Source: a virus (lineage: Duplodnaviria; Caudoviricetes). From it: a stretch of 64,000 nucleotides of DNA. Location: the IMG/VR virus record IMGVR_UViG_2806310546_000001. One strand, 5' to 3'. The notes beneath the pieces were generated by a model, which had not been told where the DNA came from, did no database searches, and worked only from the letters and a program-made list of their open reading frames with translations. The position numbers and the translations under genes were made by a program. Shown here in pieces: positions 1 to 17,213 of the stretch; the stretch's first letter is position 1; every line of letters begins with the position of its first letter.

Positions 1-582
1 TTAGTTTCCCGGAGTAAATGCGCGGTAAGTGCGAGGCTCGTTGCTCCCCACCTGAGGAGCCGCGCAGGCCGCGTACTTCGCGTCCACCCACGCGGCGAAC
101 TCCGGATCCTCGCGGTACCTACGGAGCGTGTCCTCCAGCAACATCACGGTCCGTGGCAGCGGAGGCCAGGGAAGGTTCTTCTCGGCGCGGTACCGAATCC
201 ACTCATCCACCGTGAAGTCGAGCTTGTTCTCATTGCAGGACCTACATGCAGGAGCAAGATTACGGCGCCGGCGAGTTCCTCCCTGGCTGACCGGGACGAT
301 GTGATCGACACAAGTCGCTTCGTCACCGCAGTAAGCGCAATTACCCGACGCTAGGACGTCTCTACGAACTGCAGCGGGGATCCTTCGAGCCTCTCTCTTC
401 GCTCGCACGGCCCTGTCGGCCTGAGCCGCGCGGTAGTCCTTGATGGCCTGGGCTCGTCGCGACGGGCCCAGTTGCCGATCGGACAGGGCTGCGACGACCG
501 ACCCAACGTCCGGATACTCGCCAACCTCAACCAGGTACTTGAACCTCTCGAGCCGCGTAGCGGGGTCACCTTCGAGCAGCAT
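1..582 (-). CDS. HNH endonuclease
   Basis: CAYC...DHIVPVSQGG...NLAPACRSCNENK motif. ATG at 582 overlaps the TGA of the upstream HTH gene (TGATG), so the start is moved from the track's 675. Confidence 0.85.
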   Translation of the reverse strand: MLLEGDPATRLERFKYLVEVGEYPDVGSVVAALSDRQLGPSRRAQAIKDYRAAQADRAVRAKREARRIPAAVRRDVLASGNCAYCGDEATCVDHIVPVSQGGTRRRRNLAPACRSCNENKLDFTVDEWIRYRAEKNLPWPPLPRTVMLLEDTLRRYREDPEFAAWVDAKYAACAAPQVGSNEPRTYRAFTPGN

Positions 583-839
583 CAGGTTTCCCCGTCTCGC
601 AGGTACGGCTGAGCCCAACGGTGCACTGTTGACTGGTCGACCTTCCGAAGCGCCGCGATCCGCGGCCAGGTCCACCCGCGGCGGTACAACTCGGCTGCTG
701 TCCGCCCCTCGATGGCTTTCCGTTCGCTCAACGCCCTGAACGAATCAGCCAGTTCAGCTTCGGTCATGTCGCCGACTTCGATCTCTCCGGTCATGAGCCG
801 CACCAGAGCATGTGTCACCTCGTACTTACGGCCCGTCAC
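582..839 (-). CDS. small helix-turn-helix regulator (Kor-like repressor candidate)
   Basis: C-terminal GWTWPRIAALRKVDQSTVHRW HTH; divergent from the transfer operon. Confidence 0.7.
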   Translation of the reverse strand: MTGRKYEVTHALVRLMTGEIEVGDMTEAELADSFRALSERKAIEGRTAAELYRRGWTWPRIAALRKVDQSTVHRWAQPYLRDGET

Positions 840-863
840 GGGCGGGGATCTTAGGCCATCAAC

Positions 864-919
864 CCGCCTTGCATTTCTGCAAGAGTCAGGCCAGACTAGC
901 CGCCTTGCAGTTCTGCAAG
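864..919. promoter_or_regulatory. twin palindromic operator sites
   Basis: CCGCCTTGCA(T/G)TTCTGCAAG at 864-883 and 900-919; core palindrome CTTGCA-N4-TGCAAG; located between divergent genes. Confidence 0.75.
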
Positions 920-956
920 CAAGCGTCGCCTTGTCAAACCCCGAGGAGCCTCGCCT

Positions 957-1211
957 GTGAGCTCAACACCCGACCTGAGCGTTCTGCCGGGATGCCACGG
1001 TCCAAGCCTTCACTGCGAGGCGTGCGGCAGCCGGGACGGCCTGACCGTTGTGGTCCGCGAAACGAAGTTCGGGCCGGCATGCGCCACCGTCTGCCCTGGC
1101 TGCGCGAAGGCCCGCCCGCACCCGCTGACGGTGTCCGGTGCGCAGACGTTCGCCCTGGATCACGCCCGTCACGTCACACAGGAGAAGGATCGACGGGCGG
1201 GATCGACATGA
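957..1211 (+). CDS. small Cys-rich (zinc finger) protein, first gene of transfer operon
   Basis: CEAC and CPGC pairs; ATGA overlap with next gene. Confidence 0.6.
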   Translation: MSSTPDLSVLPGCHGPSLHCEACGSRDGLTVVVRETKFGPACATVCPGCAKARPHPLTVSGAQTFALDHARHVTQEKDRRAGST

Positions 1212-1972
1212 AAGCCCGGCTCCTCGCGCTGCGCCCGTCCGGCCCGTGGCTGCTTCGTGACGCTCTCCGCGTCGTCCTGGTCGTCCTCCTCGCCGCGGTG
1301 TCTGCCTGGTACCTGACCCGGTGGGGGTTGGCGAACCGGATCCCGGTCGGGTTGGCGTGGACGCTGCCGGTACTGGCTGACGCGTCGGCGCTGCTGGGGA
1401 TCGTGGTGGCGAAGCACCCGCGGGACGAGTCGTGCCGGCGTAAGGCGACCCGGTTCGCGTGGGCATCTGCCGGTTTGTCGGCGGTCGGGAACGGTGCGAT
1501 GCACGCGGTGGATTTCCAGGCCGTCGAGGTGTCCATCTGGACGGTTGTCCTGACCGGCGCCCTGTATCCGCTGTTCCTGGCGTGGGGCTACGACGTGGCC
1601 GGCGGGATGGCCGCGCGGCCGGGCGGGGTGTCGGTACCGCAGGACGTCGAGACGCCAAGGACGGTCGCTGAGCTCGCCAGCGAGCGCGTGACCGAACCCG
1701 CGACTCCGTGGCAAGAGCAGCCGCCTCCCGCGCCCCCCGATCCTGCTCCTGCGGCGGAGGACGCGACCCCGCCGCAGGAGCAGTTCCACGAGTGGACCGT
1801 AGAGGCAGCGACCGACTGGGCGTTGGGCGAGCTCCGCGCCGGCAATGGTCCGGTCGGCTGGAAGAAGGTCCGGACGCAGACGGGGCTGACCGAGGGGCCG
1901 GCCGGGCGTGCAGCTCGAGCGGCGAAGGCGACACACGAGCGTGAGGCCCGTCCGAGGTTGGTGGGCACATGA
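1208..1972 (+). CDS. DUF2637 / Spd-like membrane spread protein
   Basis: Four hydrophobic segments with LAWTLPVLAD and SAVGNGAMHA motifs, Pro-rich linker, HTH-like C-terminus; ATG at 1208. Confidence 0.65.
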   Translation: MKARLLALRPSGPWLLRDALRVVLVVLLAAVSAWYLTRWGLANRIPVGLAWTLPVLADASALLGIVVAKHPRDESCRRKATRFAWASAGLSAVGNGAMHAVDFQAVEVSIWTVVLTGALYPLFLAWGYDVAGGMAARPGGVSVPQDVETPRTVAELASERVTEPATPWQEQPPPAPPDPAPAAEDATPPQEQFHEWTVEAATDWALGELRAGNGPVGWKKVRTQTGLTEGPAGRAARAAKATHEREARPRLVGT

Positions 1973-2184
1973 TTACCGGCTACGTCCTCGGGTGGATGTC
2001 GGCACTTCCGTGCATGTTCGGGCTGACGTGGTGGCTCGACCGCCGTGACGAGAGGCGACGACGGACAACGCTGCGGATCGACCAAACGCCGGTCCCGCTT
2101 CCTGGCGCCTACGAGCCGTGGTCTGAGCGGAGCCTGCCCGGGGTGCGGACCCACACCGTCGTCGACGGGGAGGGGCGGTCGTGA
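1969..2184 (+). CDS. small membrane protein
   Basis: One TM segment; 4-bp overlaps on both sides. Confidence 0.55.
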   Translation: MITGYVLGWMSALPCMFGLTWWLDRRDERRRRTTLRIDQTPVPLPGAYEPWSERSLPGVRTHTVVDGEGRS

Positions 2185-2447
2185 AGGCCGGGCTAATCGC
2201 GGGCCTGTTCGTATGGGCCGCGCTGGCGGAACACGGCGTGGTTGGCGGCATCGCAGGACTCCTCGTTGGCCTGGCCGCCTGGTGGCTAGAAGCGAACATG
2301 TGGCCCGATATCGAGGGCTGCTGGAACCCGTTTTGCCGGAAGGGGAAGCTCAGCTACTCCCCGTTCGTGCCGAAGGCGTACCGCCGGTGCGGGCGCTGCG
2401 GGGGGTCTGGGCGTAGACGGCGGGTGCTGGCGGGTGGCAAGTCGTGA
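2181..2447 (+). CDS. small membrane protein with CxxCxGxG zinc finger
   Basis: Two TM segments then CGRCGGSG; coupled by GTGA overlaps. Confidence 0.6.
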   Translation: MKAGLIAGLFVWAALAEHGVVGGIAGLLVGLAAWWLEANMWPDIEGCWNPFCRKGKLSYSPFVPKAYRRCGRCGGSGRRRRVLAGGKS

Positions 2448-3040
2448 CCGCGCATCCGAGCCGGGACTGGTCCGACAAGGGCGGGTCGTTCACCCAGGGC
2501 CGGACCTGGGACAACCCAGGCGGACCCATGGTCCAGCCGTCCACCGCTGACATTGAGCGTCGGGCACGGGAGGTTCTGGCCCGGTTGGATCCGAGCGCTG
2601 CGGACGTGATGCGGGTTCAGGGCCGGCACGTGTCGGACCGTCTCGCTTCCGATGCGCTGGGGAAACGGGACCACGTGGAGTCGTCCCAGGCGATCTCTGC
2701 TGCCATGCCCCGACGGCCTCACTGGCAGCCGCGCCAGGTCGTCCCGCTCAGCGAGCAGCGGCGGCAGGAGATCGCGACCGCTGGTAGACCGCGAGACGTC
2801 GACTACCCGGGGCGGGGCAGGGAGCTCGCGGATGCGGCGAACGAATCGTGGCGCCACTACTTCTCCGAGCGCTACGGCCTCGCCTTGGACGACGACCTCC
2901 ACCGCGACGCGTGGCTCGAGCAGCAGGCGGTGGAGCCGCGGGAGGACCACTACGCCGGCTCACCGGACTTCGACGACTTCGACATGCCAGGGCAGCGCGC
3001 CGCTGCCGACGAACACGTACAGGAGCAGGTGCAGACATGA
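2444..3040 (+). CDS. hypothetical protein (transfer operon)
   Basis: 4-bp overlaps with both neighbours. Confidence 0.55.
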   Translation: MTAHPSRDWSDKGGSFTQGRTWDNPGGPMVQPSTADIERRAREVLARLDPSAADVMRVQGRHVSDRLASDALGKRDHVESSQAISAAMPRRPHWQPRQVVPLSEQRRQEIATAGRPRDVDYPGRGRELADAANESWRHYFSERYGLALDDDLHRDAWLEQQAVEPREDHYAGSPDFDDFDMPGQRAAADEHVQEQVQT

Positions 3041-3568
3041 CCGAGACCGCGAACAGCAAGGCGATGTGGGATCTCTATCTCATGGCCCGCGACAGCGATG
3101 ACTGGTTCTCGAGCGGCACAGACGCCGCCCACCAGGAGTGGCTGGACTCGATGGGCCACGTCGACGCCGACGTGGACGTGGACGTCCAGTGACCGCGCCG
3201 TGGCACGACGTCGAGGTGGTGTGGCCGGACGGGTCCAAGAGTGAGGACGGGATCCGCGGTTCGGACCGCGACCACGCGCTCGAGAACGCGGAGTGGAACT
3301 GGATCAGCGGCAACCCGTACGGCCGGGCGGAGCGGATCGAGTACGTCGGCCCGTCGCCGACACCGGTGGACTGGTGGGCCGCCCACTCGGTGTCCGCCGA
3401 TGACGAGGTGGATGTGCTGTGAGCGACGAGACGTGGTGGGAGCGGTTCTTCGGCCCCACAGAGCCCGGCGAGTGGACGGGGCCGTGCTGCGTGGAGGTCG
3501 CCCCTGACTCGCCGCCGATCCCGTTCCGGTGGTTCGACCAAGCCGACGGGGATGTGGATACGCGATGA
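3037..3568 (+). CDS. three small acidic, Trp-rich coupled ORFs (3037-3192, 3189-3422, 3419-3568)
   Basis: Unbroken chain of ATGA/GTGA start-stop overlaps read from the sequence. Confidence 0.5.
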
Positions 3569-5289
3569 GGACGACTCACTACCTGGTCATGACGATCGTG
3601 GTCGGCGTGACGACCGCGGTGGTGGCGTGGTCTCAGTACCGGAGCTGGCTCACGGCGCTGGTCGGTCTCGCTGTGGCGGGGCTGGCGGCGGCGGTGTTGC
3701 GTCGCTGGCTGCGCAGGCAGCCGCACCCGCGGTGGGATCAGTTCCGGGACTTCCTCCGGCCCCAGGCCCATTCCGCGCAGACGGTGCTGGACCGGTCGGA
3801 GACGACGCTGCGGCAGCACGGCTTGGCCTCGGATGCCGAGATCCGGGAGCACGGCGGGGAGGCCGCTGTTCTTGCGCTCGCCCCCATCGTCCGTCCCTCC
3901 CTCGCCCACCGATCGGACGTGAAGGTGGAGGAGGTGGCGCTCGAGCTGTGCACCGTGGGGAAACGGAAGGTGTGGTCGTCCATCGAGCAGGTGGTGCTGT
4001 ACTTCGCCGGACCTCGCCGCGGGAAAACTGGATATCTGAACTGCCGGGTCGTGGACTACCCGGGGAGTGTCGTCACCACCTCCACCCGGATCGACGTGTT
4101 CACCGCCACCCACCGTGCCCGTGCTGCTCGAGGACGGGTGCAGGTGTTCAACGCCGGCGGCTTCCCCGGGGTGGACGAGGTAGCGGTCACCTTCAACCCG
4201 CTGACGGGGTGCGAGGAAGCGGAGACCGCGACGCAGCGAGCGGAGGACATGATCCCAGAGTCCACCGGGGAGGAGGAGCGGTGGCAGTCCCTCGCCCGCG
4301 GCGCCCTGTCCTCCCTGATGCATGCGGCGGCTTTGGACGGCCGGGACATGGACACGGTGCAGCGGTGGGTGGCGGCGCCCGGTGAGCACCAGGACGAGGT
4401 GATCCGGATCCTCCGCCGCTCCACCTCGGGTGGGGTGATGGAGGATGCCCGGCAGTTCTTTGAGTGCAACGACAAGACCCGGAGCTCCATCACGACGTCG
4501 GTGATGCCGGCGCTGCGGTGGTTGCAGTCCAAGACGGCGCGTCTCGCGGCGGGGCTGGACGGAGCACAGGCGCGTCCTCTCGACTCGGCTTCTCTCCTGA
4601 CGTCGGTCTCCACCTTGTACGTGCTGGGCCGGCGGGCTGGGCACACCTACCCGCTTATGTCGGCGCTCACCGGCTACGTCGCCCGCGCTGCGCGGGAGCA
4701 GGCGGCGGGGATGCCGTCCGGTCGCTGCGACCCCCCGCTGGGTCTGCTGCTCGACGAGGCCGGGGACCTCCGCCCACCGCTGCCGGACTGGACGCGGGAC
4801 ATGGGCGGGTCCGGCATCACGATCGCCGCCTGCTTCCAGTCGTACGCGCAGATGGTCGGGGCGTGGGGGAAGGAAGGCGCCGCGATCATCCTCAACAACG
4901 CCGGGCCGATCATGCTGGGCGGCGGGACGAAAGACCCCGACGACCTCGCCGTGTGGCGGGACCTCGCCGGCGACCGCGATGACCGCACCACCACCACGGA
5001 CGCGCAGGGGAAGGTGACGGCTGCCGCGATGCGGTCGGTGCCGGTCCTCCCCGCCTCCCAGCTCGCCTCCCAGGCACGAATGGAAGTGGTGTTGTTCCAC
5101 GGCGAGATGCGTCCCGCGCTGGGGCGGACGACGCCGCTGTGGGAGCGGGACCCTTCGGTCGCCTCTCCCCCTCCCCCCTCCGTGGAGGAGGTGGAGTCCC
5201 CCGTGGTGGAGGTGCCGAGGGTGTGGCGTCGTTCCTCCCCTCCTCGTTCTCGCCGTGTTCCGGTGGAGGAGGTGGTGGCGGATGTCTGA
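3565..5289 (+). CDS. type IV coupling protein (VirD4/TraD/TraG-like ATPase)
   Basis: N-terminal TM pair, Walker A AGPRRGKT, VVTTSTRID, FNPL, Walker B LLLDEAG, ACFQSYAQ...WG...ILNN; ATG at 3565. Confidence 0.88.
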   Translation: MRTTHYLVMTIVVGVTTAVVAWSQYRSWLTALVGLAVAGLAAAVLRRWLRRQPHPRWDQFRDFLRPQAHSAQTVLDRSETTLRQHGLASDAEIREHGGEAAVLALAPIVRPSLAHRSDVKVEEVALELCTVGKRKVWSSIEQVVLYFAGPRRGKTGYLNCRVVDYPGSVVTTSTRIDVFTATHRARAARGRVQVFNAGGFPGVDEVAVTFNPLTGCEEAETATQRAEDMIPESTGEEERWQSLARGALSSLMHAAALDGRDMDTVQRWVAAPGEHQDEVIRILRRSTSGGVMEDARQFFECNDKTRSSITTSVMPALRWLQSKTARLAAGLDGAQARPLDSASLLTSVSTLYVLGRRAGHTYPLMSALTGYVARAAREQAAGMPSGRCDPPLGLLLDEAGDLRPPLPDWTRDMGGSGITIAACFQSYAQMVGAWGKEGAAIILNNAGPIMLGGGTKDPDDLAVWRDLAGDRDDRTTTTDAQGKVTAAAMRSVPVLPASQLASQARMEVVLFHGEMRPALGRTTPLWERDPSVASPPPPSVEEVESPVVEVPRVWRRSSPPRSRRVPVEEVVADV

Positions 5290-5836
5290 GTCGCCAGCCG
5301 AGGTGGAGGGGCCCGATCTTCACGCGGAGGTGGAGCGCCTCGCCGGGATGGTGGTGGCGCTCGCCCGCAAGGTGGGGGAGCTCGAGTCCCGGGACGACCC
5401 GTCCGCGGTGCGGTCGTGGCTGTACGTGGACGACGAGGAGACGGCCGGGTTCATGCTGGCCGACCTGTGCGCGTGGGTCGAGAAAGTGTGGTTCCAGTAC
5501 GACGACGCGCGCCGGCTGCAGCCGTGCTGGCTGTACCACCCGGGCATCGTCGAAGAGCTGTGGGTGCTGATGAACGTCCACCGGGGCTGTTTCCGGAAGG
5601 GCGGCTCGTACCAGCAGATGGAGACGTGGCACGCGACCTGGCGGCCGGCCGCTGTTGAGCGGATCCGGAAGTACGCGTCGTCCTGCGAGATCACCGAGCA
5701 CCAGCCTGGCGGCGACCTTGACCCGGCTAGGCACCCGCCCGTCCCTGGCCTGTCTGACGTTGACGCAGTTGCTGGCCGCTGGCCCGAGTCCGACGTGCCG
5801 CCGAGCCCTCCTACCCCTGTATCTCACCCTGTGTGA
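5282..5836 (+). CDS. conjugation-associated protein (DUF4913-like)
   Basis: L.AWV...PCWLYHPGIVEEL...WH pattern, between coupling protein and relaxase. Confidence 0.55.
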   Translation: MSESPAEVEGPDLHAEVERLAGMVVALARKVGELESRDDPSAVRSWLYVDDEETAGFMLADLCAWVEKVWFQYDDARRLQPCWLYHPGIVEELWVLMNVHRGCFRKGGSYQQMETWHATWRPAAVERIRKYASSCEITEHQPGGDLDPARHPPVPGLSDVDAVAGRWPESDVPPSPPTPVSHPV

Positions 5837-5981
5837 CTGCTGACTACCTGTAGTGCACTGCAAGTACGACCGATACACACCTTCGCATCCCGATCCCTAG
5901 GTACTGCGTGCCGCTGTGCGGCAGCGGCCGGGAGGCACACACCGTGACAGCTATTGAGACCACTCAGATCGGATCACGCAG
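5837..5981. promoter_or_regulatory. candidate origin of transfer (oriT)
   Basis: Intergenic, directly upstream of relaxase; inverted repeat GCCGCTG-N5-CAGCGGC (5910-5928) followed by GGCACACACC; nic site not determined. Confidence 0.5.
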
Positions 5982-8900
5982 ATGCTGAGTGTGGGGTTCG
6001 GCCACGACGTCCACTACCTCACTGCCAGCGTCACGACGGGTCGCGAGTCTTACTACACGGGAGCGACCGAGGCCGGTGGTGAACCGCCCGGTCAGTGGTA
6101 CGGCTCTGGGGCCGCGCTTCTGGGGCTCACCGGTGAAGCCAGCACCGAGGCGGTGGAGGCCGTCTACCACCGCCTCCAGGACCCGCGAAACCCGAAAAAC
6201 ACGTTGGGGGCGGCGCACAAGCACTACCGCACCCCGGTGGAGATCCACCGACAGCTGTTGGAGGCGGAGGGGGCGGTCACCCCGGAGCGCCGGCAGGAGC
6301 TGCTGCTGCAGGCGGAGGGGCAGGCGAAGCAGGCGGTGGCGTTCACGGACGTGACCCTGAACTGCCCGAAGTCGATCTCCGTGTTGGGGGTGGCGCTTGA
6401 ACGTGCGGCGGTGGAGGCGGAACGCGGCGGCAGGGAGGAGGAGGCCGCGGGGTGGAGGGTCCAGCACAAGGCGGTGGAGGAGGCAGTGCTTGCTGGCTCT
6501 CGCGCAGCGATCGACTACCTCGAGGAGGTCGCCGGCTACGGGCGGGTGGGGAAGCACGGGGCGGGGGCGGATCGTTGGCAGGACTCCCACCAGTGGGTGG
6601 CGTCCCTGTGGCTGCAGCACGACACCCGTGACCACGACCCGCACCTCCATGTGCACGCCGCGATCCTGAACCGGCAGTTGTGCGCGGACGGCCAGTGGCG
6701 GGGCCTGGACAACATGGCGATCAAGCTCCACCGGGCCGGGGCGTCCGCCATCTCGGAGCGGGTCATCGAGTCGATGCTTGCGCAGACGTTGGGGATCCGG
6801 TTCGAAACCCGTCCGGACGGGAAGGCCCGGGAGATCGTGGGCATCGACCAGGATGTGATGGAGATGTTCTCCAGCCGCCGCCGCGCGATCGGGCCGAAGG
6901 TGGACGAGCTCGTGAAGGCGTTCCGTGAACGTTACGGGACTGAACCGAGCCCCCTGCAGCGGACGCACTTGTCGCAGCAGGCGACGTTGGCGACCCGACG
7001 GGCCAAATCGCATGACGGCGAGTCGTTGGCGCAGCGGCTGGATCGGTGGGAGCAGATGACGCAGCACCGGTTGTCGACGGGGCTGGCGGGTGTGGCGGAC
7101 GCGGTGTTGTCCGCACGGCAGGACGCTGGGCCGGTCGCGACGTGGTCGTCGGAGGATGTGGTCCAGCGGGCGATCGCGAAGGTCGCGGTCGGGAACGCGG
7201 CATGGACGCGTTCGGATCTGATGCGGGCAGTGTCGGACTCGTTGCCGGGGCATCTGGGGCTGGACCCATCGGAGGTGCGCCCGCTGCTCGAGGAACTGAC
7301 CGATATCGCCCTGGCGGAGACTCAGCGTCTGACCCCGACCCCGGACCTGTCTCTGCGGCCGGCGGAGCACCTCCTCGCGGATGGTGGTGACGTGTACGCG
7401 CGGCCGGGGAGCGCGAAGTTCTCGGCCCCTGGGCAGATCCCGGCGGAGGAGCTGCTGAGAGAGGCGGCGGTTGAACGGGGCGCGATGGCCGTGTCGACGG
7501 CGGAGGCGGACGCGCTGATCCAGCGGTACCGCGACCACGGCGTAGACCTAGGCGCAGACCAGGAGGCGGCGCTGCGTGGCGTGTTGACATCGGGCGCGAT
7601 GGTGGAGGCGATCAATGCACCGGCGGGGGCCGGTAAGACTGTGGTGACGGGGGCGCTCGCGCAGGTGTGGGCGGAGCACGGCCGGGCGGTCCTGGGTTTG
7701 GCGCCGAGTCAGGTGGCCGCGGACGTGATGGCCGACGAGGGTGTGCCGGCGGTGAACATCGACCGGTGGCTTCACTCGGCGGATGCCGGTCTTCGGCACG
7801 GGGATGTCGTGGTGGTGGACGAGGCGGGGATGGCGTCGACCCAGCATCTGGTGGCGGTTCGGGAGCGGTGCCGTGAGGCGGGGGCGAAGATGCTGCTCGT
7901 CGGTGACCCGCAGCAGTTGGGCGCCGTCGGCCCGGGTGGGGCGCTGCAGGACATGACGGAGCGTGCGAAGACCTACGAGCTCGCGGAGGTGCGGCGGTTC
8001 TCGCAGCCGTGGGAGCGGCACGCGTCGCTCGGGCTGCGTGACGGGTCGGCGGCGTGTCTGGACGAGTACGACCGGCACGGCCGGATCAGGGGGTCGGGGA
8101 CGCAGGATCAGGCGGAGGCGTCGGCGATCCGGGCGTGGCTGGCGGACACGCTGGAGGGGAAGCAGTCGCTGCTGATGGCCGGGTCGAACGAGGCATCGGA
8201 GCGTATGGCGGGTGCCGCCCGCGCGGAGCTGGTGCGGCTCGGCAAGCTCCCGGAGGAAGGGGTGCGGCTGGGCCGGGACGGGAACACGTGCGGGGTGGGG
8301 GATCTGGTGCAGGCCCGCCGGAACGGGTGGCATCTGGCGTCGTCGTCGGGGGTGCCGATCAACCGGGCCACCTACCGCGTGCAGGAAGTGGAGGAGGACG
8401 GATCGCTGGTGGTGTCGCCGGTGCTGGGCGACAAGCTCGGGGACCCGGTGAAGTTGCCGGCCGACTACGTGAACCAGCACGTGAGTCTCGGCTACGCGGC
8501 GACGGTGCATTCATCGCAGGGCCGGACGGTGCATTCGACGCATTCGGTGGTGTCGCAGGCGTGGTCGACCGCGCTGACGTATGTGGGGATGACGCGCGGC
8601 CGGGAAAGTAATACCGCTTGGGTGGTGACCCGCCCGACCCCGACGGATTCCCCTGCCGGTCAGGCGCAGGAGGTTCACGACCGGCCCGCTCGCGCCGTCC
8701 TGGCGGAGATCTTGGAGCGGGACTCGGTTCAGCGGTCGGCGTTGGCGGAGCGGGACTCGCTGGAGGCTGAGGCGCGGTCAGAGTTCACGGTCGTCGGCCA
8801 GTTGATCGACGGGGTGTCCCGGTCCACGGCGGGCCAGACTTCGACGCTCCTGGACCACCTGACGGCGTCTGGCGCGATCACGGAAGAACAGCGTCGGGAC

Positions 8901-10133
8901 TTGGCGCAGGACGACGCTATGGGCGCGGTGGAGCGGCTGCTGCGGTCCGCTGAGGTGGCGGGGCACGACCGGCAGGATCTGCTGGCGGATGCTCTCGCCG
9001 GTCGGTCGTTGGCGGGGGCGCGTTCACCGGGGCAGGTGCTTCACCACCGCCTGCATCGTGACCTGCAGTTGGATTCGACGATCGGCTCGTTCCGGGACCT
9101 GATCCCTCGGCAGGTGCAGGACCATCACCGGGCGTGGTTGGAGGATCGGGCGGAGGCCGCGGATGTTCGGCGGCACGAGCTCGGCGCTGAGATCGCCCAG
9201 GATCCGCCGGTGTGGGCGTTGGAGGCGCTGGGGCCTGTCCCGGAGGATCCGCTGGAGAGGGCGGGTTGGGAGGCGAAGGCGGGGTGGGCCGGCGCGTCCC
9301 GGGAGATCTCCGGGTATGACTCGGAGACCGACCCGTTGGGTCCTGCTCCCCCTGCGGGGTTGGCGGAGAAGCACACGATCTGGCGGACCGCGCACCAGCA
9401 TCTTGGGCTGACCGATCGGGGCCCGGAGGAGGGGCTGCTGTCGGACGGGTTGTTGCGGCAGCGGGTGGCGGCGTTCGAGCGGGAGCAGAACTGGGCGCCG
9501 GCGGTTGTGCGGGAGGCTCTGGCGGCTACGTCGCGGGCTGCGGCGGATCGTCACGTGGACGGGGTTCTGCGGGAGGCGCACGGCGATGACACGGCGGTGG
9601 ATGCGGCGGCGGAGTCTCTGGTGCTGGCCGAGTCGGCGAAGGGCCTGGATGAGGCGGATCGTGCCCGGCAGGCGTGGTTTGAGCACGTCGCGGAGACGCG
9701 GGAGCACGCGCTGCGGGCTGCCGCCGAGTTGAAGGCTCGTGGTGTGGATGTGTACGACGAGTCGGGGAAGGTGACGGCGCGGGAGTGGCTGGACGCGCAC
9801 CGGGAAGCGCAGGAGGCGGACGAGCGGGGGAAGCCGATCGACCGTCTCGCCGAGGACGACGTCACCGAGGTTGTGCCGCTGGACGAGTCGCAGCCGATCG
9901 TGGAGACGGCGGTCCCGGATGTGCGGGACACGTCGGAGCGGCACCCGTCCGAGGACGTCGACGACGACACCGTGGCCGGGATGGAACGGACCCGGGAAGC
10001 GGTAGCTCGGGCGCAGGACGCTTTGGACGAGATCCGGCAGCGGGAGAGCCTGGACGAGTCCGACTACGAGCCGGACGCGGTGGAGTACGAGCCGGACGTC
10101 GACGAGCAGGACTTGGTGGACGTGTGGGACTAG
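5982..10133 (+). CDS. mobF: MOBF (TrwC/TraI-like) relaxase with RecD-like helicase domain
   Basis: YL...ESYY, GEPPGQWYGSGA..LGL, DVTLNCPKSIS, HUH motif HDTRDHDPHLHVH; helicase motifs APAGAGKT, VVVDEAGM, LVGDPQQL, GYAATVHSSQGRT, YVGMTRGR. Confidence 0.95.
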   Translation: MLSVGFGHDVHYLTASVTTGRESYYTGATEAGGEPPGQWYGSGAALLGLTGEASTEAVEAVYHRLQDPRNPKNTLGAAHKHYRTPVEIHRQLLEAEGAVTPERRQELLLQAEGQAKQAVAFTDVTLNCPKSISVLGVALERAAVEAERGGREEEAAGWRVQHKAVEEAVLAGSRAAIDYLEEVAGYGRVGKHGAGADRWQDSHQWVASLWLQHDTRDHDPHLHVHAAILNRQLCADGQWRGLDNMAIKLHRAGASAISERVIESMLAQTLGIRFETRPDGKAREIVGIDQDVMEMFSSRRRAIGPKVDELVKAFRERYGTEPSPLQRTHLSQQATLATRRAKSHDGESLAQRLDRWEQMTQHRLSTGLAGVADAVLSARQDAGPVATWSSEDVVQRAIAKVAVGNAAWTRSDLMRAVSDSLPGHLGLDPSEVRPLLEELTDIALAETQRLTPTPDLSLRPAEHLLADGGDVYARPGSAKFSAPGQIPAEELLREAAVERGAMAVSTAEADALIQRYRDHGVDLGADQEAALRGVLTSGAMVEAINAPAGAGKTVVTGALAQVWAEHGRAVLGLAPSQVAADVMADEGVPAVNIDRWLHSADAGLRHGDVVVVDEAGMASTQHLVAVRERCREAGAKMLLVGDPQQLGAVGPGGALQDMTERAKTYELAEVRRFSQPWERHASLGLRDGSAACLDEYDRHGRIRGSGTQDQAEASAIRAWLADTLEGKQSLLMAGSNEASERMAGAARAELVRLGKLPEEGVRLGRDGNTCGVGDLVQARRNGWHLASSSGVPINRATYRVQEVEEDGSLVVSPVLGDKLGDPVKLPADYVNQHVSLGYAATVHSSQGRTVHSTHSVVSQAWSTALTYVGMTRGRESNTAWVVTRPTPTDSPAGQAQEVHDRPARAVLAEILERDSVQRSALAERDSLEAEARSEFTVVGQLIDGVSRSTAGQTSTLLDHLTASGAITEEQRRDLAQDDAMGAVERLLRSAEVAGHDRQDLLADALAGRSLAGARSPGQVLHHRLHRDLQLDSTIGSFRDLIPRQVQDHHRAWLEDRAEAADVRRHELGAEIAQDPPVWALEALGPVPEDPLERAGWEAKAGWAGASREISGYDSETDPLGPAPPAGLAEKHTIWRTAHQHLGLTDRGPEEGLLSDGLLRQRVAAFEREQNWAPAVVREALAATSRAAADRHVDGVLREAHGDDTAVDAAAESLVLAESAKGLDEADRARQAWFEHVAETREHALRAAAELKARGVDVYDESGKVTAREWLDAHREAQEADERGKPIDRLAEDDVTEVVPLDESQPIVETAVPDVRDTSERHPSEDVDDDTVAGMERTREAVARAQDALDEIRQRESLDESDYEPDAVEYEPDVDEQDLVDVWD

Positions 10134-10564
10134 GAGAGGTCGGCGAGGGCGGCCCAGCGGGCGGCCTGTCGTCGTGCCTTGTCCTGCATGTCCCGGCGTT
10201 CTTCCGCGATGGGCGGGAGCGGGTGGTCGTCGACCATCTCCGCGTACAGCTGCTCGGCGGTGACCACGGTGCCGTCGGAGTTGCGGCGCGGGATCTCGAT
10301 GGGCGCTGCGGCGAAGCCCATCAGCCACGCCAGAACATCCGCACGGCCCGCCTTCTCCCGGTCGGTGTTGCGCTCCGGGAGGGCGTCGGTCATTTCGTCG
10401 CCGGCCGCTTCCCGGGACACGGGCCAGCCGCACGCCCAATCAGCGCCGTCCCACACCCCGCGGGTGTAGTCGTCGCGGTGGTGCTTGGTGATGGTGAGGA
10501 GGTCCCGGACCTGCTGGTGGTCGGGGGAAACCCACGTGGGGATGGAGTGGGCTCGGGTGTCCAT
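10130..10564 (-). CDS. hypothetical protein
   Basis: 144-aa ORF converging on the relaxase stop. Confidence 0.55.
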   Translation of the reverse strand: MDTRAHSIPTWVSPDHQQVRDLLTITKHHRDDYTRGVWDGADWACGWPVSREAAGDEMTDALPERNTDREKAGRADVLAWLMGFAAAPIEIPRRNSDGTVVTAEQLYAEMVDDHPLPPIAEERRDMQDKARRQAARWAALADLS

Positions 10565-10795
10565 GCGTCGAGTGTGCGGTAGCGGGGATAACGGCGTCTA
10601 GACGGCAGGAGTGGGCGGTAGAATCGTTGTGCCTGCCGGGTACGCGCGTCGGTGCTGCCACCGTCTCCGTTGAATCGGTCCGCCCCCGGAGGACGCTGGT
10701 AGCGAAAGAGACCCAAGGGGTTTCTGCGGGGCACCGCTAGCCGCCAGTGAGGAACCCCCGTTGGTTCCGGTCGGCCCCTGCCTTGAGCCACAGGC

Positions 10796-12078
10796 TCACT
10801 GGTGGGGGCCGAACTGCTCTCGCGACCACCTCTCGCGCATCCGCTCATCGGCGCAGAGCGAACCCCACTTCACCGGCCCAGCGGTGAACGCTGCCATACC
10901 GACCGCGTAGACGAGGACGGCTGCGACGTTCTGACCGTCGTAGAGGAGGACCGTGAAGACGGCCATGACGAGGACACCGAGGGCGATCGTCAGGACGAGT
11001 GCGGTGCGGGAGGTCATGACGCCTCCTGTTCCCGCGCCTGCTCGACCAGGGCGTCCAGCATCCGCATCAGAGGCTCCGCCCGCTCACGGCGGTAGCGGCG
11101 GAACTGGACGTTGCAGACGATCTCAGCCACGACGGCGTAGACGACCACGAACACGAGCGCGGCAGCGGCCATCCACGCCAAGGGGAGCAGATCAGCCCAC
11201 GTCGGCCAGATGTATCCGGTCATGGCGCCTTCCCTACCGAGTTCGGCCCGAGGTGACGGCACAGCAAGTCCACCACCTCCGACAGCATCAACGGGTCAGT
11301 GCGGCCAGAGTCAGGGCGCCACAACCCGGGAATGACGTCAGGATGTGGGAGGGCGACGAGACGGCGCTGAGGGTGCTTCTGAGATCGCCCTCTGGCGTGC
11401 TCCGTCATCCTCATCTCCTCCCCGTCTCGCCGGCGTCCTGCGTCCAGTCCACGTTTCCGCGCTCGTCGGGCCATACGGGGCGGATCCAGCCATCAGGCAA
11501 GACCAGTTTCCTGACTGCGGTGTAGCTGTCGACCATCAGAATCGCTCCATGCGATCCGCGTAGACCGTAAGACTCGGAGCCGTCACGGTTCAGATGGTTG
11601 ACCCGCATGCCCTGACGTTCGAGGTAAGCGACCGTTTCGGCTTGTGGATCGAGTTTGGGCGTTGCCGCAGCTGCGGGTCGTTGCTTGCGGCGAGGCCCGA
11701 TGCAGAACCACAAGTAGCCGAGCATGGCGGGCGCGCACAGCAGGAGCCCGACATAGAGCATCCACATCAGGTGCTCTTGGTTGGCCAGGACTGGGTAGCC
11801 GATCAGGAACACTGGCAGAGCGAACAGGGCAGCCATGGCGGCGAAGGCTGTCAGCCACCCCTTGGCGGCCTTGTTCCCGGTCTCTGTCACGACGCTCTCC
11901 TCACCCGGGGGCGGAAGTTCGCCCAATGCCACGCCCGCTGGCCGTTGTCCTTCTTGCAGCCGTCCTGGCAGCGGTAAGCGACCGGAGGGCGAGCCGAGGA
12001 CCGCACAGTCCTCCCGACCTTGTACGCCCTGCCCAGGGCGGCGCGCTCCGAGTCGAAGCGCTGCTTCCGGCACGTCAT
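10796..12078 (-). CDS. chain of small coupled ORFs, several membrane (10796-11017, 11014-11223, 11220-11414, 11411-11890, 11887-12078)
   Basis: Consecutive 4-bp overlaps; hydrophobic segments in three of them. Confidence 0.5.
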
Positions 12079-12224
12079 GCCGCTGCCCTTTCCTGTGCGA
12101 GAGCTGCGTTGACGATTCTCCGCCAGAGACGACCAGATGGGGACGATGCATCGCTGATCGGGCCAGCGGTCGCGTTATGGCGCTTTCCCGGCCGGGATGG
12201 AGGGCGGGCGGTGGGCGGCCGTCA

Positions 12225-12668
12225 TCACGGCTCGGCCGGCACTGGCGGGTCCAGCGCGTCAGCCTGCCGACGCAGATTCTCCGCCTCTCGTCGAAGTGCC
12301 AGAGCCCGCTCCTGGTCCATCGTCCGACCGCCGTGCGGGCTGACGCGTTCGGTTTCATCGACGGCACCGGCTCGGTCCAAGATTGCGCACACCTCGGAGA
12401 TGCTGCGGGGCTTCTCCTGGCGCAACGCGTCGAAGAACTCGGGCATCTGGTTCAGGACGTCCCATGAGTCTCCGAAGATGCGGAGCTGCAGAGCCGATGA
12501 CCCGCCATCGAAACGACGACACACAACGCTGAACTCCCAGACCGCTCCGCCGCCGTCGTAGGAGGCAGAGACCATCACGGAGTCATCCTGGCCGTTGTGC
12601 GTGACGCTTGCGTGCCAGGCCTCTTGGGGCAGGAAGTACGTCAGGGCAGAACCCTCAGGCAGGTTCAT
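12225..12668 (-). CDS. hypothetical phage protein
   Basis: MNLPEGS start overlaps the upstream stop and has a GAGGAG SD. Confidence 0.55.
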   Translation of the reverse strand: MNLPEGSALTYFLPQEAWHASVTHNGQDDSVMVSASYDGGGAVWEFSVVCRRFDGGSSALQLRIFGDSWDVLNQMPEFFDALRQEKPRSISEVCAILDRAGAVDETERVSPHGGRTMDQERALALRREAENLRRQADALDPPVPAEP

Positions 12669-12859
12669 GATGTCTCCTCGGTAGGGGTCGCACGACGCCA
12701 GCCTTGTCCCGGCCGCCGCAGGTTCTCCACCTCGGACCGGAGGTAGCCCCGTCGTTCGGTGATTCCGTAGCGACGGAGTGTGGATCGGACGGACTCGGGC
12801 TGGATGCCGAGATGTTCGGCGACCTCTTCCCGGGTCATGACTGGCTCTTTGTCTGGCAC
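12665..12859 (-). CDS. small HTH DNA-binding protein (excisionase/MerR-like)
   Basis: MTREEVAEHLGIQPESVRSTLRR. Confidence 0.65.
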   Translation of the reverse strand: MPDKEPVMTREEVAEHLGIQPESVRSTLRRYGITERRGYLRSEVENLRRPGQGWRRATPTEETS

Positions 12860-12943
12860 CCACCCAGCTTACTCCGCCAGGGGAGCAACGTCCATCGGGT
12901 CACGACGCGAACAGATGGTCACGAGCGACAGCGGTGTGGACGA

Positions 12944-13195
12944 TCACGCGGTCGCCACCACCGGCAGAGGCTCATCGGACAACACTGCGATGGGGTCCAC
13001 TCCCAGCGCTTCACACATGACGTTGAGATCGTCCACAGTCAGGTAGCCACGTCGACCGCTTTCCATGTTGGCAATGACCGACCGGGACATACCGCAGAGG
13101 CGTGCCAGGTCATCGGCCGATAGGCCGCGGATGCGGCGGACGTGCTTCAACCGAGCGATGGCATCGGCGCTACCTAGTGTCCCCGTCTTCGTCAA
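12944..13195 (-). CDS. XRE-family HTH regulator
   Basis: LKHVRRIRGLSADDLARLCGMSRSVIANMESGRR...EALGV; TTG start overlaps the initiator stop. Confidence 0.85.
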   Translation of the reverse strand: MTKTGTLGSADAIARLKHVRRIRGLSADDLARLCGMSRSVIANMESGRRGYLTVDDLNVMCEALGVDPIAVLSDEPLPVVATA

Positions 13196-13962
13196 GACGC
13201 CCTTCTCTCTGCTCGTGTCCCGAGCCAGCCGTTGGGGTGGTCGGTGCCAGCCTCTCGGACCCACTTCTGTGCCCGGTCGGCTAGTTGGCGCGGAGTCAGG
13301 TTGTCGCACCTGTGACCGAGGGTGTAGCCCATCGCGTCCTTAGCCTTGTCGCCCACTTCGAGACCTGCGGCTTCCATAGTGGCAACAGCGGCCGAGACGA
13401 GGTACTGCACTACGGCGCCTCGGTCGTCCGACTCCGGTAGCCATCGCGGTACGAAGATCTTTCTATCCGTCGTTGAGCCTGCGAAATGACGGCCGCTCAC
13501 AGCGTTACTAGAAGTACTGGTCTTGATAGAAGATGGTCTCGTTCGCTGGTCTTGTTCGTGTGCATCACCTGCACCGTCCCCATGCATGTCATGCACGGTC
13601 CCCCCGTGCACCTCCTGCACTCTTGCTGGTTCGTAGCCACGACCCATGTCGCGCAGGTGATAAAGGTTCGACGTCTGCCGGTTCGACTCCTCGTCGCGCT
13701 GATGCTCGATCTTCCAGACTCCCGCGTCGGCCCCCGCCTTGATCGCGGACGCGACGGTGCGGACGGAGAGGCCGGTGTCGCGGGCCAGCGTGGCGCGGGA
13801 TGGCCAGACGGAACGGGTCTTGCTGGCGTACGTCGTGAGGGCGACGTAGACCAGCTTGACGTGGGGGTGGAGCGTCGGGTCGCGGAAGACGGCGGTCTCG
13901 ACCATGCCGAACGCCACCCCTCCTGACGGATGCTCTACGACGGGGGCATTGCTAGAATCCAC
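13192..13962 (-). CDS. phage-type replication initiator (HTH_36 winged helix)
   Basis: KLVYVAL...WPSRATLARDTGLSVRTV..AI...SNLYHL followed by an internal repeat region; GTG at 13962. Confidence 0.75.
   Translation of the reverse strand: MDSSNAPVVEHPSGGVAFGMVETAVFRDPTLHPHVKLVYVALTTYASKTRSVWPSRATLARDTGLSVRTVASAIKAGADAGVWKIEHQRDEESNRQTSNLYHLRDMGRGYEPARVQEVHGGTVHDMHGDGAGDAHEQDQRTRPSSIKTSTSSNAVSGRHFAGSTTDRKIFVPRWLPESDDRGAVVQYLVSAAVATMEAAGLEVGDKAKDAMGYTLGHRCDNLTPRQLADRAQKWVREAGTDHPNGWLGTRAERRAS
13500..13620. repeat. iteron-like repeats / candidate replication origin inside initiator gene
   Basis: TGCA-N5-TGCAC at 13561, 13583 and 13607, next to an AT-richer tract with TGGTCT repeats. Confidence 0.6.
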
Positions 13963-14063
13963 TTGTCGACCTCGACTCGACCGCGCCCCGGGCCTGCTAC
14001 CAACAGGTAGTCCGGGGCATCTCTTATTGGGGAGCGCAGCACCGTTGCCGCTACCCCGGATAC

Positions 14064-14148
14064 TACCGCTTAACCGCCCGGAGATCGAACCGTTCAGCAA
14101 GGCAAACGCGCAGGTCGGCGCACCATTCGATGGTAGAATCGGGGCATG
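14064..14148. promoter_or_regulatory. divergent promoter element, copy A
   Basis: Leftward -10 TAGTAT, rightward -10 TAGAAT 6 nt before ATG 14146; 57/85 gapless identity (manual count) with 24678-24762. Confidence 0.7.
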
Positions 14149-15991
14149 GATGAGCGGCCCACGACAATCGTCGTACTTGGCTCCGGGCACGGGCCAGAAC
14201 GGGTCCGAGCGGAGGCTAGACTCACCAATTGCGACCGACTCCAACTGGTCATGGTCATTGACGATCCGACAGTCGCAACAGCCTCCGATGCCGAAGCCCT
14301 CGCCACTCAGGAACTGAACCGACGCCAGGAGACCGGGATCCGATGAGCGCATCCGAGATTAGCGACAGCATGGTCGTCTACGCCGCAGACAAGCGGCGAG
14401 CCAGCCCGGACCTGCTCGTGGACCTGTGGCTAGCTGAACGCGCTGGCGTACCGCGCAGCGCGGTCGCTGAGGCGGTCGAGCGGGCAGCAGAGCGAGGTTT
14501 TGTGGAGCGGGGCACTTCGGCCGGCACGTGCTGGCCGACTCCGGCCGGTCTCGCGATGCTCTCGTCCGTCACCTCTGCGGCCCGTGAGCGTGGCGGGATC
14601 ATGACGGGGACAGTCATCGTCACTGGTTCGTCGTGACCGCTCTATGGCGGGCCTGGCTAGCGAGGACCGACCGGTGATCCTGGACAACTCCACCTGCCCC
14701 TGCGGCCAAGAACGGAGCAAGCGATGAGCGACACCGGATGGACCGAGCCTCACGGCGACGGCTGGAAGGTCCGAGACGAGGTCCATGCATGGCGCGTCTG
14801 GCAGACGCAGGAGATCCCGCCTCTCAACGGCATCTCAGCCCAGAGGTACTACTTGAATGACGTGATCACAGACGAGGATCAATGGACCGCGTCCGGCTAC
14901 CTCACCAAGGACAGCGACGGCATGATCGTGGACGGCACACCAGAGCCCGAGGCCAACTCGTGAAGGCCCACCTAGGCCACCTCTCCCCCGCTGACGTCGA
15001 CTCCCGTGTCTCCGCTGTACTGGCGTCCCTCTCCCCCACCGAGGACGTTCTTCGACGCGAGGTGGAGTCCGGTACCGCGTGTGTGTGCCGCCGGGATGCG
15101 TGGCGGGAGATCCGGGGGTTGCGGTGGCTGGCAGGGGAGGACGAAACGTGAACGGCACCGCGAGGCGACTCGACCCGAGCGACGACGGGACAGTGATGGT
15201 CGTCGGCCCCACACCGTCCGTGGAGCGCGCGGTCCTGTGCGGGCAGAAGGTGTTGGAGTACCTGCACTGGGCCCGCCGCGACTTCAGACGGGTCTGCATC
15301 CTCCCGGTCGATGAGCGCGTCCCCGTCTGTCCCGAGCATGGACCGCGAACCGCAGTAGAGATGCCAGGAGGAGCAGTGACCGACAGCGACGCCCCGACGT
15401 ACAGCCGAAAGGGCCGGACGGTGCCGCCACCGGTCCACGCTCCGTTCACGCCCGAGCAGCAGGCCGCCCTGAACCGCTACCAGCTTGCCGGGGTGATGCA
15501 CCCGTTCACGTGCCCGCATTGCGACGGGTCCCCGTCCCTGCTCGCGTTCGCCGAGTGGCGGTGCCCGTGGTGTCCCTACACGCAGCACTGGGCACACGAG
15601 TTCATGGCGACCGATAAGGCCGTTGAGCCGTCGTGGCGCCGCTCGTCTTCCTCCTGACGCCCTTGCCCACCACCCCGCCTACGCTCCCTCGGTGGCCAAC
15701 GAGAGTCCCCAGCAGCGCCGTTCCCGCCAACTCCGGGAGGACCGCGACAGGTGCCGGGAGGCAGCGCAACGGTTCCGTCACCGCATCGCGCAGGGCCGCT
15801 ACCGCAGCCTCCCGGACTCGGACGGCGACGACCTCCTCTATTTGGCCGCCGTCCTCGACTCGGCCGGTACGAGCCTGTCGGAGCTCCCCGACCAGATGTA
15901 CCGGGACGTCCTGCACGCTGTGCGCCGGCTATTGGACGACGGCCCGAAACGCGGCGACGTGGACCCGATCACCCGCGGGGACGGGCACTAG
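14146..15991 (+). CDS. cluster of small phage-like hypothetical ORFs (14146-14346, 14343-14636, 14724-14963, 14960-15151, about 15376-15657, about 15623-15991)
   Basis: Co-oriented short ORFs, several with 4-bp overlaps; some starts uncertain. Confidence 0.45.
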
Positions 15992-16320
15992 GTCTGTTCG
16001 GTGACCCCTTCGGGCTGCAGCACGATCCTCGCCCCGTCGGCGGTCTCGTGGCCGGGGTCGCGCACCACTTCCCCGTCGACGCGCACGTAGCCGCCTTTGA
16101 GGTGCTGGCGCGCGCGCTCGTCGGACAGGCCGATCGACCCGGTCAGGCGTTCGATGATCGTCACGCGGGAAGCGTAGACACACAGAAAACGGCCCCGCCC
16201 CCACCCATGTCAGGGCGAGAGCGGGGCCATTCCCACACCGGCGGACCGACCGCCTCCACACTTCTGATGATTCAACACCCGGCACCGCAACGACTGGGCG
16301 GCGCACACGACACACATGGT

Positions 16321-17064: not shown

Positions 17065-17128
17065 GCCTGCGTTCTGGCCTCGGGCTGTGCGCCCGCGCGA
17101 GGTTGTCACGCACCTGCGGGCGCGCATA

Positions 17129-17180
17129 GAAAACGAGCCCCCACCACCCGACATGGGCGGTGGGGGCTCGTCTGTTGTTC
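17129..17180. terminator. probable bidirectional terminator
   Basis: ACGAGCCCCCACC...GGTGGGGGCTCGT hairpin with A and T flanks, between converging transcription units. Confidence 0.75.
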
Positions 17181-17213
17181 ACGCTGTACCTGCGGGTCCC
17201 GGCATAACACAAC

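Follow-up and report, generated by a model that had tools for sequence, protein, structure and literature searches.

A predicted MOBF mobilisation cassette with its own coupling protein and candidate oriT on a tRNA-Asn-integrated prophage-like element of Pseudonocardia

We analysed a 64,000-nucleotide stretch of DNA (hereafter the window; 64 kb, about 67% GC, G000:C1:4626400-4690399), which is recorded as a virus under IMGVR_UViG_2806310546_000001 and belongs to a Pseudonocardia genome made up of a 6.5-Mb chromosome (72.9% GC) and a 110-kb plasmid, C2. Positions 582-10564 of the window are best explained as a conjugative DNA-processing and coupling cassette, predicted to consist of a regulator, an operator, a coupled operon of ten genes, a transfer origin (oriT) and a MOBF relaxase-helicase, and this cassette is carried by a 110-kb prophage-like element in the chromosome. 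Since the coupling protein, the relaxase and the oriT appear intact but no mating channel was found on the element, it probably borrows the channel of another element; we give about an even chance to the reading that it is a prophage-fused mobilisation cassette served by the channel of a helper. To our knowledge, prophages are not known to encode conjugation functions. What appears to be new here is a prophage-like element that itself encodes a MOBF relaxase and a coupling protein and carries an oriT, together with a wider family of loci that resemble the integrative and conjugative elements of actinomycetes (AICEs) and are without VirB4, the functions being predicted from sequence in both cases.

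The open reading frames (ORFs) of the cassette were called with the guidance of GC content at third codon positions (GC3), every junction was checked, and the encoded proteins were scanned against Pfam, PHROGs and NCBIfam. The features thus assigned are as follows, with positions given in the window.

582-839, minus strand: putative helix-turn-helix (HTH) regulator, 85 aa, a GC3-supported ORF divergent from the transfer operon and named a regulator by its position
864-883 and 900-919, plus strand: palindromic operator-like site of 20 bp, CCGCCTTGCA-N-TTCTGCAAG, in two direct copies, read in the sequence
957-1211, plus strand: ORF 1, 84 aa, zinc-ribbon-like, with two Cys pairs (CxxC...CxxC) in the translation
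1208-1972, plus strand: ORF 2, 254 aa, divergent DUF2637-like polytopic membrane protein with at least three hydrophobic segments, assigned by profile-profile homology
1969-2184, 2181-2447, 2444-3040, 3037-3192, 3189-3422 and 3419-3568, plus strand: ORFs 3-8, small proteins, with 4-nt overlaps at each junction
3565-5289, plus strand: VirD4-type type IV coupling protein (T4CP), 574 aa from the ATG at 3565, or 586 aa from a GTG at 3529
5282-5836, plus strand: conserved accessory protein, about 185 aa, all-alpha, between the T4CP and the relaxase
5876-5928: candidate oriT, CACACC-N3-GCATCCCGATCC (5876-5896) followed by a 7-bp GC inverted repeat (5910-5916 and 5922-5928), from comparison with related loci
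5982-10133, plus strand: MOBF relaxase-helicase, 1383 aa (TrwC, AAA_30, TraI_hel_assoc_N)
10130-10564, minus strand: convergent ORF, 144 aa, GC3 0.90, overlapping the relaxase stop by 4 nt

The ten plus-strand ORFs start at 957, 1208, 1969, 2181, 2444, 3037, 3189, 3419, 3565 and 5282. Nine of these starts form ATGA or GTGA start-stop overlaps, the last one (5282) overlaps by 8 nt, and GGAGG-like sites precede several of them. The product of 3565-5289 matched the Pfam models TraG-D_C (54.8 bits), T4SS-DNA_transf (37.9 bits) and TrwB_AAD_bind (24.5 bits), all above the cut-offs, and it has two N-terminal transmembrane segments, a Walker A motif (AGPRRGKT) and a Walker B motif (LLLDE). The product of 5982-10133 scored 164.5 bits for Pfam TrwC (cut-off 25), 182 bits for AAA_30 and 162.2 bits for the NCBIfam MobF equivalog (cut-off 100). 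Its translation contains the HUH-type histidine triad as HDTRDHDPHLHVH at about residue 213 and a YY pair at residues 24-25 near the N-terminus, and the helicase part (SF1B) carries Walker A APAGAGKT and Walker B VVVVDEAG. The motifs of both the relaxase and the T4CP are intact. The original prediction, made from the letters of the window, had claimed a chain of ten ORFs at 957-5836, each start overlapping the preceding stop, as well as a coupling protein and a MOBF relaxase; the chain proved exact and both proteins real.

A 145-bp spacer between the operon and the relaxase (5837-5981) holds the candidate oriT. The motif occurs once in the window (5876-5896), with zero mismatches, against 0.04 occurrences expected by chance. 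Indeed, CACACC-N3-GCATCNCGATCC lies upstream of all four chromosomal relaxases of the family, that is, those of the window and of three paralogous modules, and is followed by a GC-rich inverted repeat, the sequence of which differs among the four loci. In a wider set of related loci, described below, about 60 of 71 had the motif no more than 260 nt upstream of the relaxase. Of 48 loci, 31 had a perfect inverted repeat of at least 6 bp that followed the motif within 45 nt, and the arms were of 17 different sequences; the corresponding controls gave 8.9 ± 2.8 for shuffles and 13 of 70 for coding windows. Since the folding energy of the hairpin is unremarkable for its GC content (z = -0.7), the hairpin is supported by the comparison across loci, not by its folding energy. 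An invariant motif beside a hairpin whose structure is kept while its sequence varies is what a MOBF nick region would be expected to show, and we infer a nick site and a transferred strand at this position. An oriT candidate had already been proposed in front of the relaxase, and the conserved motif and inverted repeat of the related loci now back it. Furthermore, the conserved GCATCNCGATCC-plus-hairpin signature provides a ready probe for finding such oriTs.

The cassette lies in a low-GC island of the chromosome at about 4.62 to 4.736 Mb. Two 39-bp direct repeats (attachment sites, att) are present at genome positions 4626259-4626297 and 4736204-4736242, and the right one forms the 3' end of a tRNA-Asn gene, next to a tyrosine integrase. 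From the positions of these repeats, the first letter of the window lies within a 110-kb integrated element, about 100 bp from its left att site; the element as a whole has about 67% GC. The original prediction had spoken of a replicon; the att repeats and the integrase identify it as a tRNA-Asn-integrated prophage-like element of 110 kb in the chromosome, not a plasmid. Only one tyrosine integrase is present inside the element, at the end opposite the transfer module, and no second one was found there. The following features outside the cassette define its phage part.

13192-14352, minus strand: O-like/HTH_36 replication initiator (Pfam HTH_36; PHROG replication initiation families, E 1e-15)
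18536-59625, minus strand: siphovirus late region of the same att-bounded element, by Pfam matches
56080-58128, minus strand: 682-aa gene adjoining the portal gene, large terminase by position (Pfam matches: intein domains only)

The late region encodes a pectate-lyase tail fibre, an M15 lysin, a 2472-aa protein of tape-measure size, a GP7-type capsid protein, an SPP1-type portal, which is 48% identical to Gordonia phage portals, and an HNH endonuclease, and the right arm of the element encodes an antirepressor, an RNA ligase and a DUF5131 protein. Since the Pfam matches of the 682-aa gene are intein domains only, its terminase label comes from its position. With the portal, the capsid, the tape-measure-size protein, the lysin and the integrase, and the terminase by position, the gene content is that of a temperate siphovirus prophage. 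The O-like initiator is placed between the transfer module and the phage late genes, and had no match in 50,697 phage records.

None of the ORFs of 957-10133 matched VirB4, FtsK or hydrolase families in Pfam, PHROGs or NCBIfam, in agreement with the claim that the module lacks a VirB4 ATPase and a cell-wall hydrolase. In genome-wide searches, AAA_10, CagE_TrbE_VirB and DUF87 gave no match inside the element (4626259-4736242), and all seven FtsK_SpoIIIE matches of the genome lay outside it, which sets it apart from TraB-type AICEs. Beyond the phage genes and the relaxase, the element contains no ORF of more than 600 aa. No VirB4-class ATPase, dedicated hydrolase or channel genes of a type IV secretion system (T4SS), such as a self-transmissible T4SS-type integrative and conjugative element (ICE) would carry, were thus found on it. 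The supposed absence of mating-pair-formation (MPF) genes was thereby extended to the whole att-bounded element, as far as profile searches reach, but not to the host, which has candidate channels on plasmid C2 and at 2.6 Mb of the chromosome. Two loci outside the element are relevant here.

C2:30034-49152, minus strand (L036, L038): MPF-like operon of plasmid C2, a candidate actinobacterial mating-pair-formation set
C1:6394016-6397450, minus strand (L034:10016-13450): sole Pfam-level AAA_10 ("VirB4-like") gene of the genome, 1144 aa

The C2 operon encodes T4CP-like, DnaJ-domain, NlpC/P60 hydrolase, transglycosylase, GH16 and ParA-like proteins, a 571-aa P-loop ATPase with sub-threshold matches to AAA_10 and FtsK, and unknown proteins of 510 and 695 aa; of its MPF-like proteins, none has a homologue in the 110-kb element except the coupling protein itself. 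Of 120 genomes of the genus, 66 have a member of the C2 ATPase family, and in the present genome a second copy, 33% identical, is encoded at C1:2598734-2600098, adjoining a T4CP-like gene; the set at this locus likewise has no homologue in the 110-kb element beyond the coupling protein. In this pair (C1:2597019-2600098), the T4CP-like gene has the best TraG-D_C score of the genome. Two tyrosine integrases (2557971 and 2570391) lie near the pair, and the locus is possibly an ICE and a second helper candidate. The C2-type ATPase was found in 39 of the 53 genomes with the T4CP family of the window and in 27 of the 67 without it (74% versus 40%, from a hand tally), an enrichment as expected for elements that hitch on a helper. 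We also considered the AAA_10 gene at 6.39 Mb as the VirB4 of a helper, and rejected it as a core gene of the genus: it is a single-copy gene that 109 of 121 Pseudonocardia genomes carry with an unchanged domain span, and it has metabolic neighbours.

In the helper-dependent route, the phage integrase would excise the whole element as a circle, and the relaxase would nick the conserved GCATCNCGATCC site beside the hairpin and remain bound to the 5' end. The coupling protein would then pass the complex of relaxase and single-stranded DNA (ssDNA) to a mating channel not encoded by the element, which might be supplied in trans by the MPF-like operon of plasmid C2 or by the ATPase/T4CP locus at 2.6 Mb. 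The att repeats, the tRNA-Asn site, the integrase, the relaxase and the oriT signature, with no MPF genes found, are those of an integrative mobilisable element (IME). The element would accordingly be classed as an IME with its own coupling protein (an iMOB) that is also a prophage, its mobilisation being predicted.

The genome contains five TrwC relaxases and eight TraG-D_C genes. Three chromosomal loci, A, B and C, share the T4CP, the accessory protein and the relaxase with the window at 40-45% identity, and an integrase belonging to each locus lies 5-10 kb away. No match to the coupling protein came up when viral and genome collections were scanned with the single protein, but alignment-based scans did find relatives, 40-49% identical, at 80 genome loci, mostly in Pseudonocardia and several per genome; the relaxase had no close relative in the viral contigs. 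Among 81 related loci, the T4CP is present in 81, homologues of the accessory protein at the same position in 76 and the MOBF relaxase in 71, in conserved order. None of the 31 members of the accessory family examined against Pfam has a family there; its AlphaFold model is all-alpha (pLDDT 78), with no PDB fold match by Foldseek. The usual neighbours are a divergent GntR regulator, an HTH_17 Xis-like protein, WhiB, small ORFs and DUF2637 proteins, with Prim-Pol and DUF3987 downstream in a minority, and the phage genes and small upstream ORFs of the window did not recur in any of these loci. Furthermore, no VirB4-size ORF recurred among the gene clusters within ±10 kb. The related loci thus have an AICE-like layout, as judged by gene content, in which a coupling protein and a predicted MOBF relaxase occupy the place of TraB, and the trio of T4CP, accessory protein and relaxase is very common in Pseudonocardia, normally on small AICE-like integrated elements with their own integrase.

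At E ≤ 1e-30, the T4CP profile matched 70 of 120 other genomes of the genus, with up to 12 copies, a count that takes in the more distant C2-type coupling proteins; the family of the window's T4CP, marked by a best E below 1e-120, was present in 53 genomes by a hand tally of the genome lists. The genus tallies for DUF2637 relatives, T4CP and AAA_10 include the unpublished genomes G004, G422 and G432, although none of our claims depends on any one of these. Outside the genus, the 30,948-bp plasmid p1 of Streptomyces sp. A2-16 (NZ_CP063809.1, L135) carries an annotated DUF2637 protein, a T4CP, an adjacent hypothetical protein and MobF; no VirB4 or TraB is annotated on it, and its PLSDB type is non-mobilizable.

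The original prediction had assigned the 1208-1972 product to DUF2637. This did not stand at the level of the Pfam model, a test set beforehand: the protein gave no match to PF10935 even at E ≤ 10, and a DUF2637 search of its own genome gave no match at this gene. A remote homology was nevertheless detected by hhalign, with the window protein and its four close homologues, the only ones among 5.8 billion proteins, as the query, and weak relatives from other genomes as the targets. The alignment to five DUF2637 proteins had a probability of 98% (E 1.6e-13, 106 columns). Since all five targets pass the PF10935 model, the product is a distant relative of DUF2637, divergent and not a model-level member, as assigned from profile-profile homology. 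The claimed pairing of a DUF2637 protein with a coupling protein does recur, since a DUF2637-like gene is directly upstream of the T4CP gene in 34 of the 81 related loci and inside the operon in 42, and the pairing is also found on the 31-kb Streptomyces plasmid. In addition, a DUF2637 gene lies directly upstream of a second T4CP of plasmid C2 (C2:9254-12429), which is 30% identical to that of the window and separate from the MPF-linked T4CP of the same plasmid. The two genes thus recur as a unit even on a plasmid with a candidate channel.

In our reading, the element is a fusion of a temperate phage with an AICE-like block for transfer and replication, and is now presumably excised and integrated by the phage integrase. 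In favour of a fusion origin, the left 17 kb, which has the att core on one side and the end of the phage late operon on the other, contains genes for regulation, transfer and a replication initiator, and no integrase. The GC3 of the module is 0.87, and both this value and the tetranucleotide signature resemble those of the phage arms more closely than those of the host or of modules A-C, which argues for a long co-residence of module and prophage. Furthermore, contigs about 85-95% identical to, and collinear with, parts of window 1-17215 were found in X2, X4 and X5, three other public runs from different studies. One of them, of 12.8 kb, spans 1136-9509, the initiator region is also covered, and small ORF regions are replaced in some (1789-1960, 2177-2439 and 14147-15666, for example). 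Such collinear contigs, at about 90% identity, indicate that the block is maintained elsewhere. A simple tandem of two elements, marked by an internal third att site, was rejected because no third copy exists inside the element, even with 9 mismatches in 39.

Immediately left of the left att site, at genome 4626035-4626163 (L017:16035-16163), we observed a 43-aa C-terminal remnant of a tyrosine integrase (49% identity, E 4.5e-8). Its spacing from the att core equals that of the intact integrase at the right att site, and it lies within about 6 kb of DNA with 63-66% GC. Together with this low-GC DNA just outside the element, the remnant suggests that the tRNA-Asn site was used before, and it looks like the stump of an older element integrated there in tandem.

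Several observations weigh against a helper-served cassette. The association of the prophage with the transfer module was seen only once, and distant relatives of the prophage (portals 30-66% identical) had no module nearby in the searchable sequence; three viral contigs with portals 62-66% identical, which are fragments only (22-65% complete), had no T4CP. Under a stricter filter, 14 of the 53 genomes with the T4CP family, many of them fragmented drafts, had no detectable C2-type ATPase, and both helper candidates encode T4CP-like proteins of their own, only 26-30% identical to that of the window. The 31-kb Streptomyces plasmid, with no annotated VirB4 or TraB, hints that a DUF2637 protein, a T4CP and MobF may suffice alone. 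In such a self-transfer without a T4SS channel, the membrane-anchored hexameric T4CP would itself be the translocase, aided by the DUF2637-like protein and by the operon's small proteins of the membrane and zinc-ribbon kinds; it would do for relaxase-led ssDNA what TraB does in AICEs, so that the 110-kb element and the small AICE-like elements would be autonomously conjugative. The trio indeed stands on AICE-like backbones exactly where TraB is expected, with no recurrent VirB4-size ORF around it, the T4CP family is abundant and multi-copy (C2-type proteins included), the DUF2637-like partner is recurrent, and AAA_10 is represented at the Pfam level only by a core gene of the genus, single-copy. 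However, we know of no precedent for a VirD4-type protein that functions without VirB4 and a channel. The enrichment of the family in genomes with the candidate MPF ATPase also speaks against self-transfer, as does the lack of conservation of the small upstream ORFs in the related loci, which leaves no conserved "mini-channel" set beyond DUF2637, and the flanks of those loci were covered to ±10 kb only. We thus regard self-transfer as rather unlikely. Its general form is more doubtful still, namely that a VirD4-type T4CP, a MOBF relaxase and a DUF2637 protein would be enough for conjugation in mycelial actinomycetes, as a third, channel-less route parallel to TraB, and would make this element the first prophage capable of spreading in two ways, as a virus and through conjugation of its own.

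The module might instead be inert cargo, left by an AICE-like element that stood in tandem with the prophage at tRNA-Asn until its integrase and the att site between the two disappeared. IMEs frequently form tandems with prophages and decayed elements (PMC5704250), and the repeated integrations at this tRNA-Asn, the left 17 kb without an integrase, the position of the module between the att core and the late operon end, and the prophage relatives without a module all fit such a relic. On the other hand, the ten coupled ORFs, the coupling protein and the 1383-aa relaxase are uninterrupted, with intact catalytic motifs, and the oriT signature is perfect, which disfavours decay; the composition near that of the phage arms and the collinear contigs of the three other runs point the same way, and an origin by fusion is compatible with function. 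To such a relic we assign a low probability, similar to that of self-transfer. A role within the phage itself is very unlikely by comparison. HUH relaxases are related to rolling-circle initiators, and PHROGs matched the helicase part to Dda-like and RecD-like phage helicases, so that the relaxase-helicase and the ATPase could conceivably serve rolling-circle initiation or DNA movement in the lytic cycle. This role is disfavoured since the coupling protein has no relative in the 50,697 phage records; the trio, moreover, is otherwise found on non-phage AICE-like elements, and the element has an O-like initiator of its own. A mobilisation cassette that depends on a helper is the reading that we favour, at about even odds. 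The two mechanisms put forward in the original prediction, mobilisation by a helper and a stripped-down channel, are those that stay in play.

Where an element has an integrase, a relaxase and a coupling protein but lacks VirB4, it is assigned to the IMEs (PMC9513070, PMC5704250). The present element resembles the IMEs with their own VirD4 in its integrase and att sites, relaxase, oriT, coupling protein, absence of VirB4 and channel genes, and expected transfer by a helper (PMC5704250, PMC9513070), but its relaxase is of the MOBF type, and it is 110 kb long and mostly prophage. Since a 2017 review of IMEs had no MobF relaxase among the canonical ones, those with their own VirD4 having MobC (PMC5704250), we count the element as a new form of a known type. 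The related Pseudonocardia loci have several features in common with AICEs of the TraB type, namely integration at tRNA genes, a GntR-type regulator, Xis, DUF2637-type proteins and, in some, Prim-Pol. Unlike AICEs, they have no FtsK-like TraB but a VirD4-type protein, an accessory protein and a MOBF relaxase in its place, which implies an ssDNA chemistry instead of a double-stranded one, and the backbone in the window is without its own integrase and joined to a phage. The T4SS-type ICEs of Actinobacteria (Ghinet et al. 2011, PMC3218068; PMC3429521) likewise have an integrase, a TrwC relaxase, a VirD4-like T4CP and integration at tRNA 3' ends, whereas their defining VirB4-like (AAA_10) component was not found in the element, the only AAA_10 of the genome being the genus core gene. 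With TrwC/TrwB of R388 and TraI/TraD of F, the element shares the relaxase-helicase fusion, the HUH motif, the N-terminal tyrosines, the membrane-anchored VirD4-type ATPase and an inverted repeat beside a conserved nick-region motif at oriT, but it has no linked MPF operon, and its accessory protein and oriT sequence are unrelated to theirs, as far as compared. A streptococcal prophage moved by conjugation with the help of an ICE, as cited in PMC12282955, is similarly a chromosomal prophage that is a passenger of a conjugative channel; compared with that case as cited there, the prophage-like element here has its own relaxase, coupling protein and oriT.

The element is therefore a concrete candidate for two routes of spread, in virions and by conjugation, the latter through a helper or possibly alone. 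As the trio is common on AICE-like Pseudonocardia backbones and occurs on a small Streptomyces plasmid with no recognisable VirB4, the question of whether the scarce actinomycete "T4SS-type" elements depend on helpers or use a simpler machine has become testable.

Another virus-called sequence with the coupling-protein family is IMGVR_UViG_3300034088_000032 (64 kb, viral-classed, CheckV 86% complete), in which a 39%-identical T4CP and the accessory gene are encoded close to one end. Neither a TrwC nor a relative of the window's portal is present, and the contig was thus rejected as the same phage; it is a second, unrelated virus-called context for the family.

Among the remaining genes of the cassette, the 582-839 product gave weak HTH matches to a PHROG transcriptional regulator and to BldC and IS630 HTH models. 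The two operator-like copies differ by one mismatch and are sited between this gene and the operon, as a putative operator. ORF 1 (957-1211) has a GTGA overlap with the upstream frame and an ATGA overlap with ORF 2, and matched no family in Pfam, PHROGs or NCBIfam. The same three databases gave no match for ORFs 3-8, which also had no homologue across the 81 related loci; the 2181-2447 product combines a membrane segment at its N-terminus with a cluster of Cys residues at its C-terminus. The 10130-10564 product, likewise without a family match in these databases, has homologues at the same relative position in 2 of the 81 related loci. In the late region, two overlapping ORFs on the minus strand (52778-53868; 189 and 227 aa) occupy the place where a single minor-head (MuF-like) gene would be expected; if the gene is truly split, the prophage may be impaired in making virions. 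Finally, the 682-aa gene adjoining the portal contains a homing-endonuclease/LAGLIDADG insert at residues 268-334, which suggests an intein.

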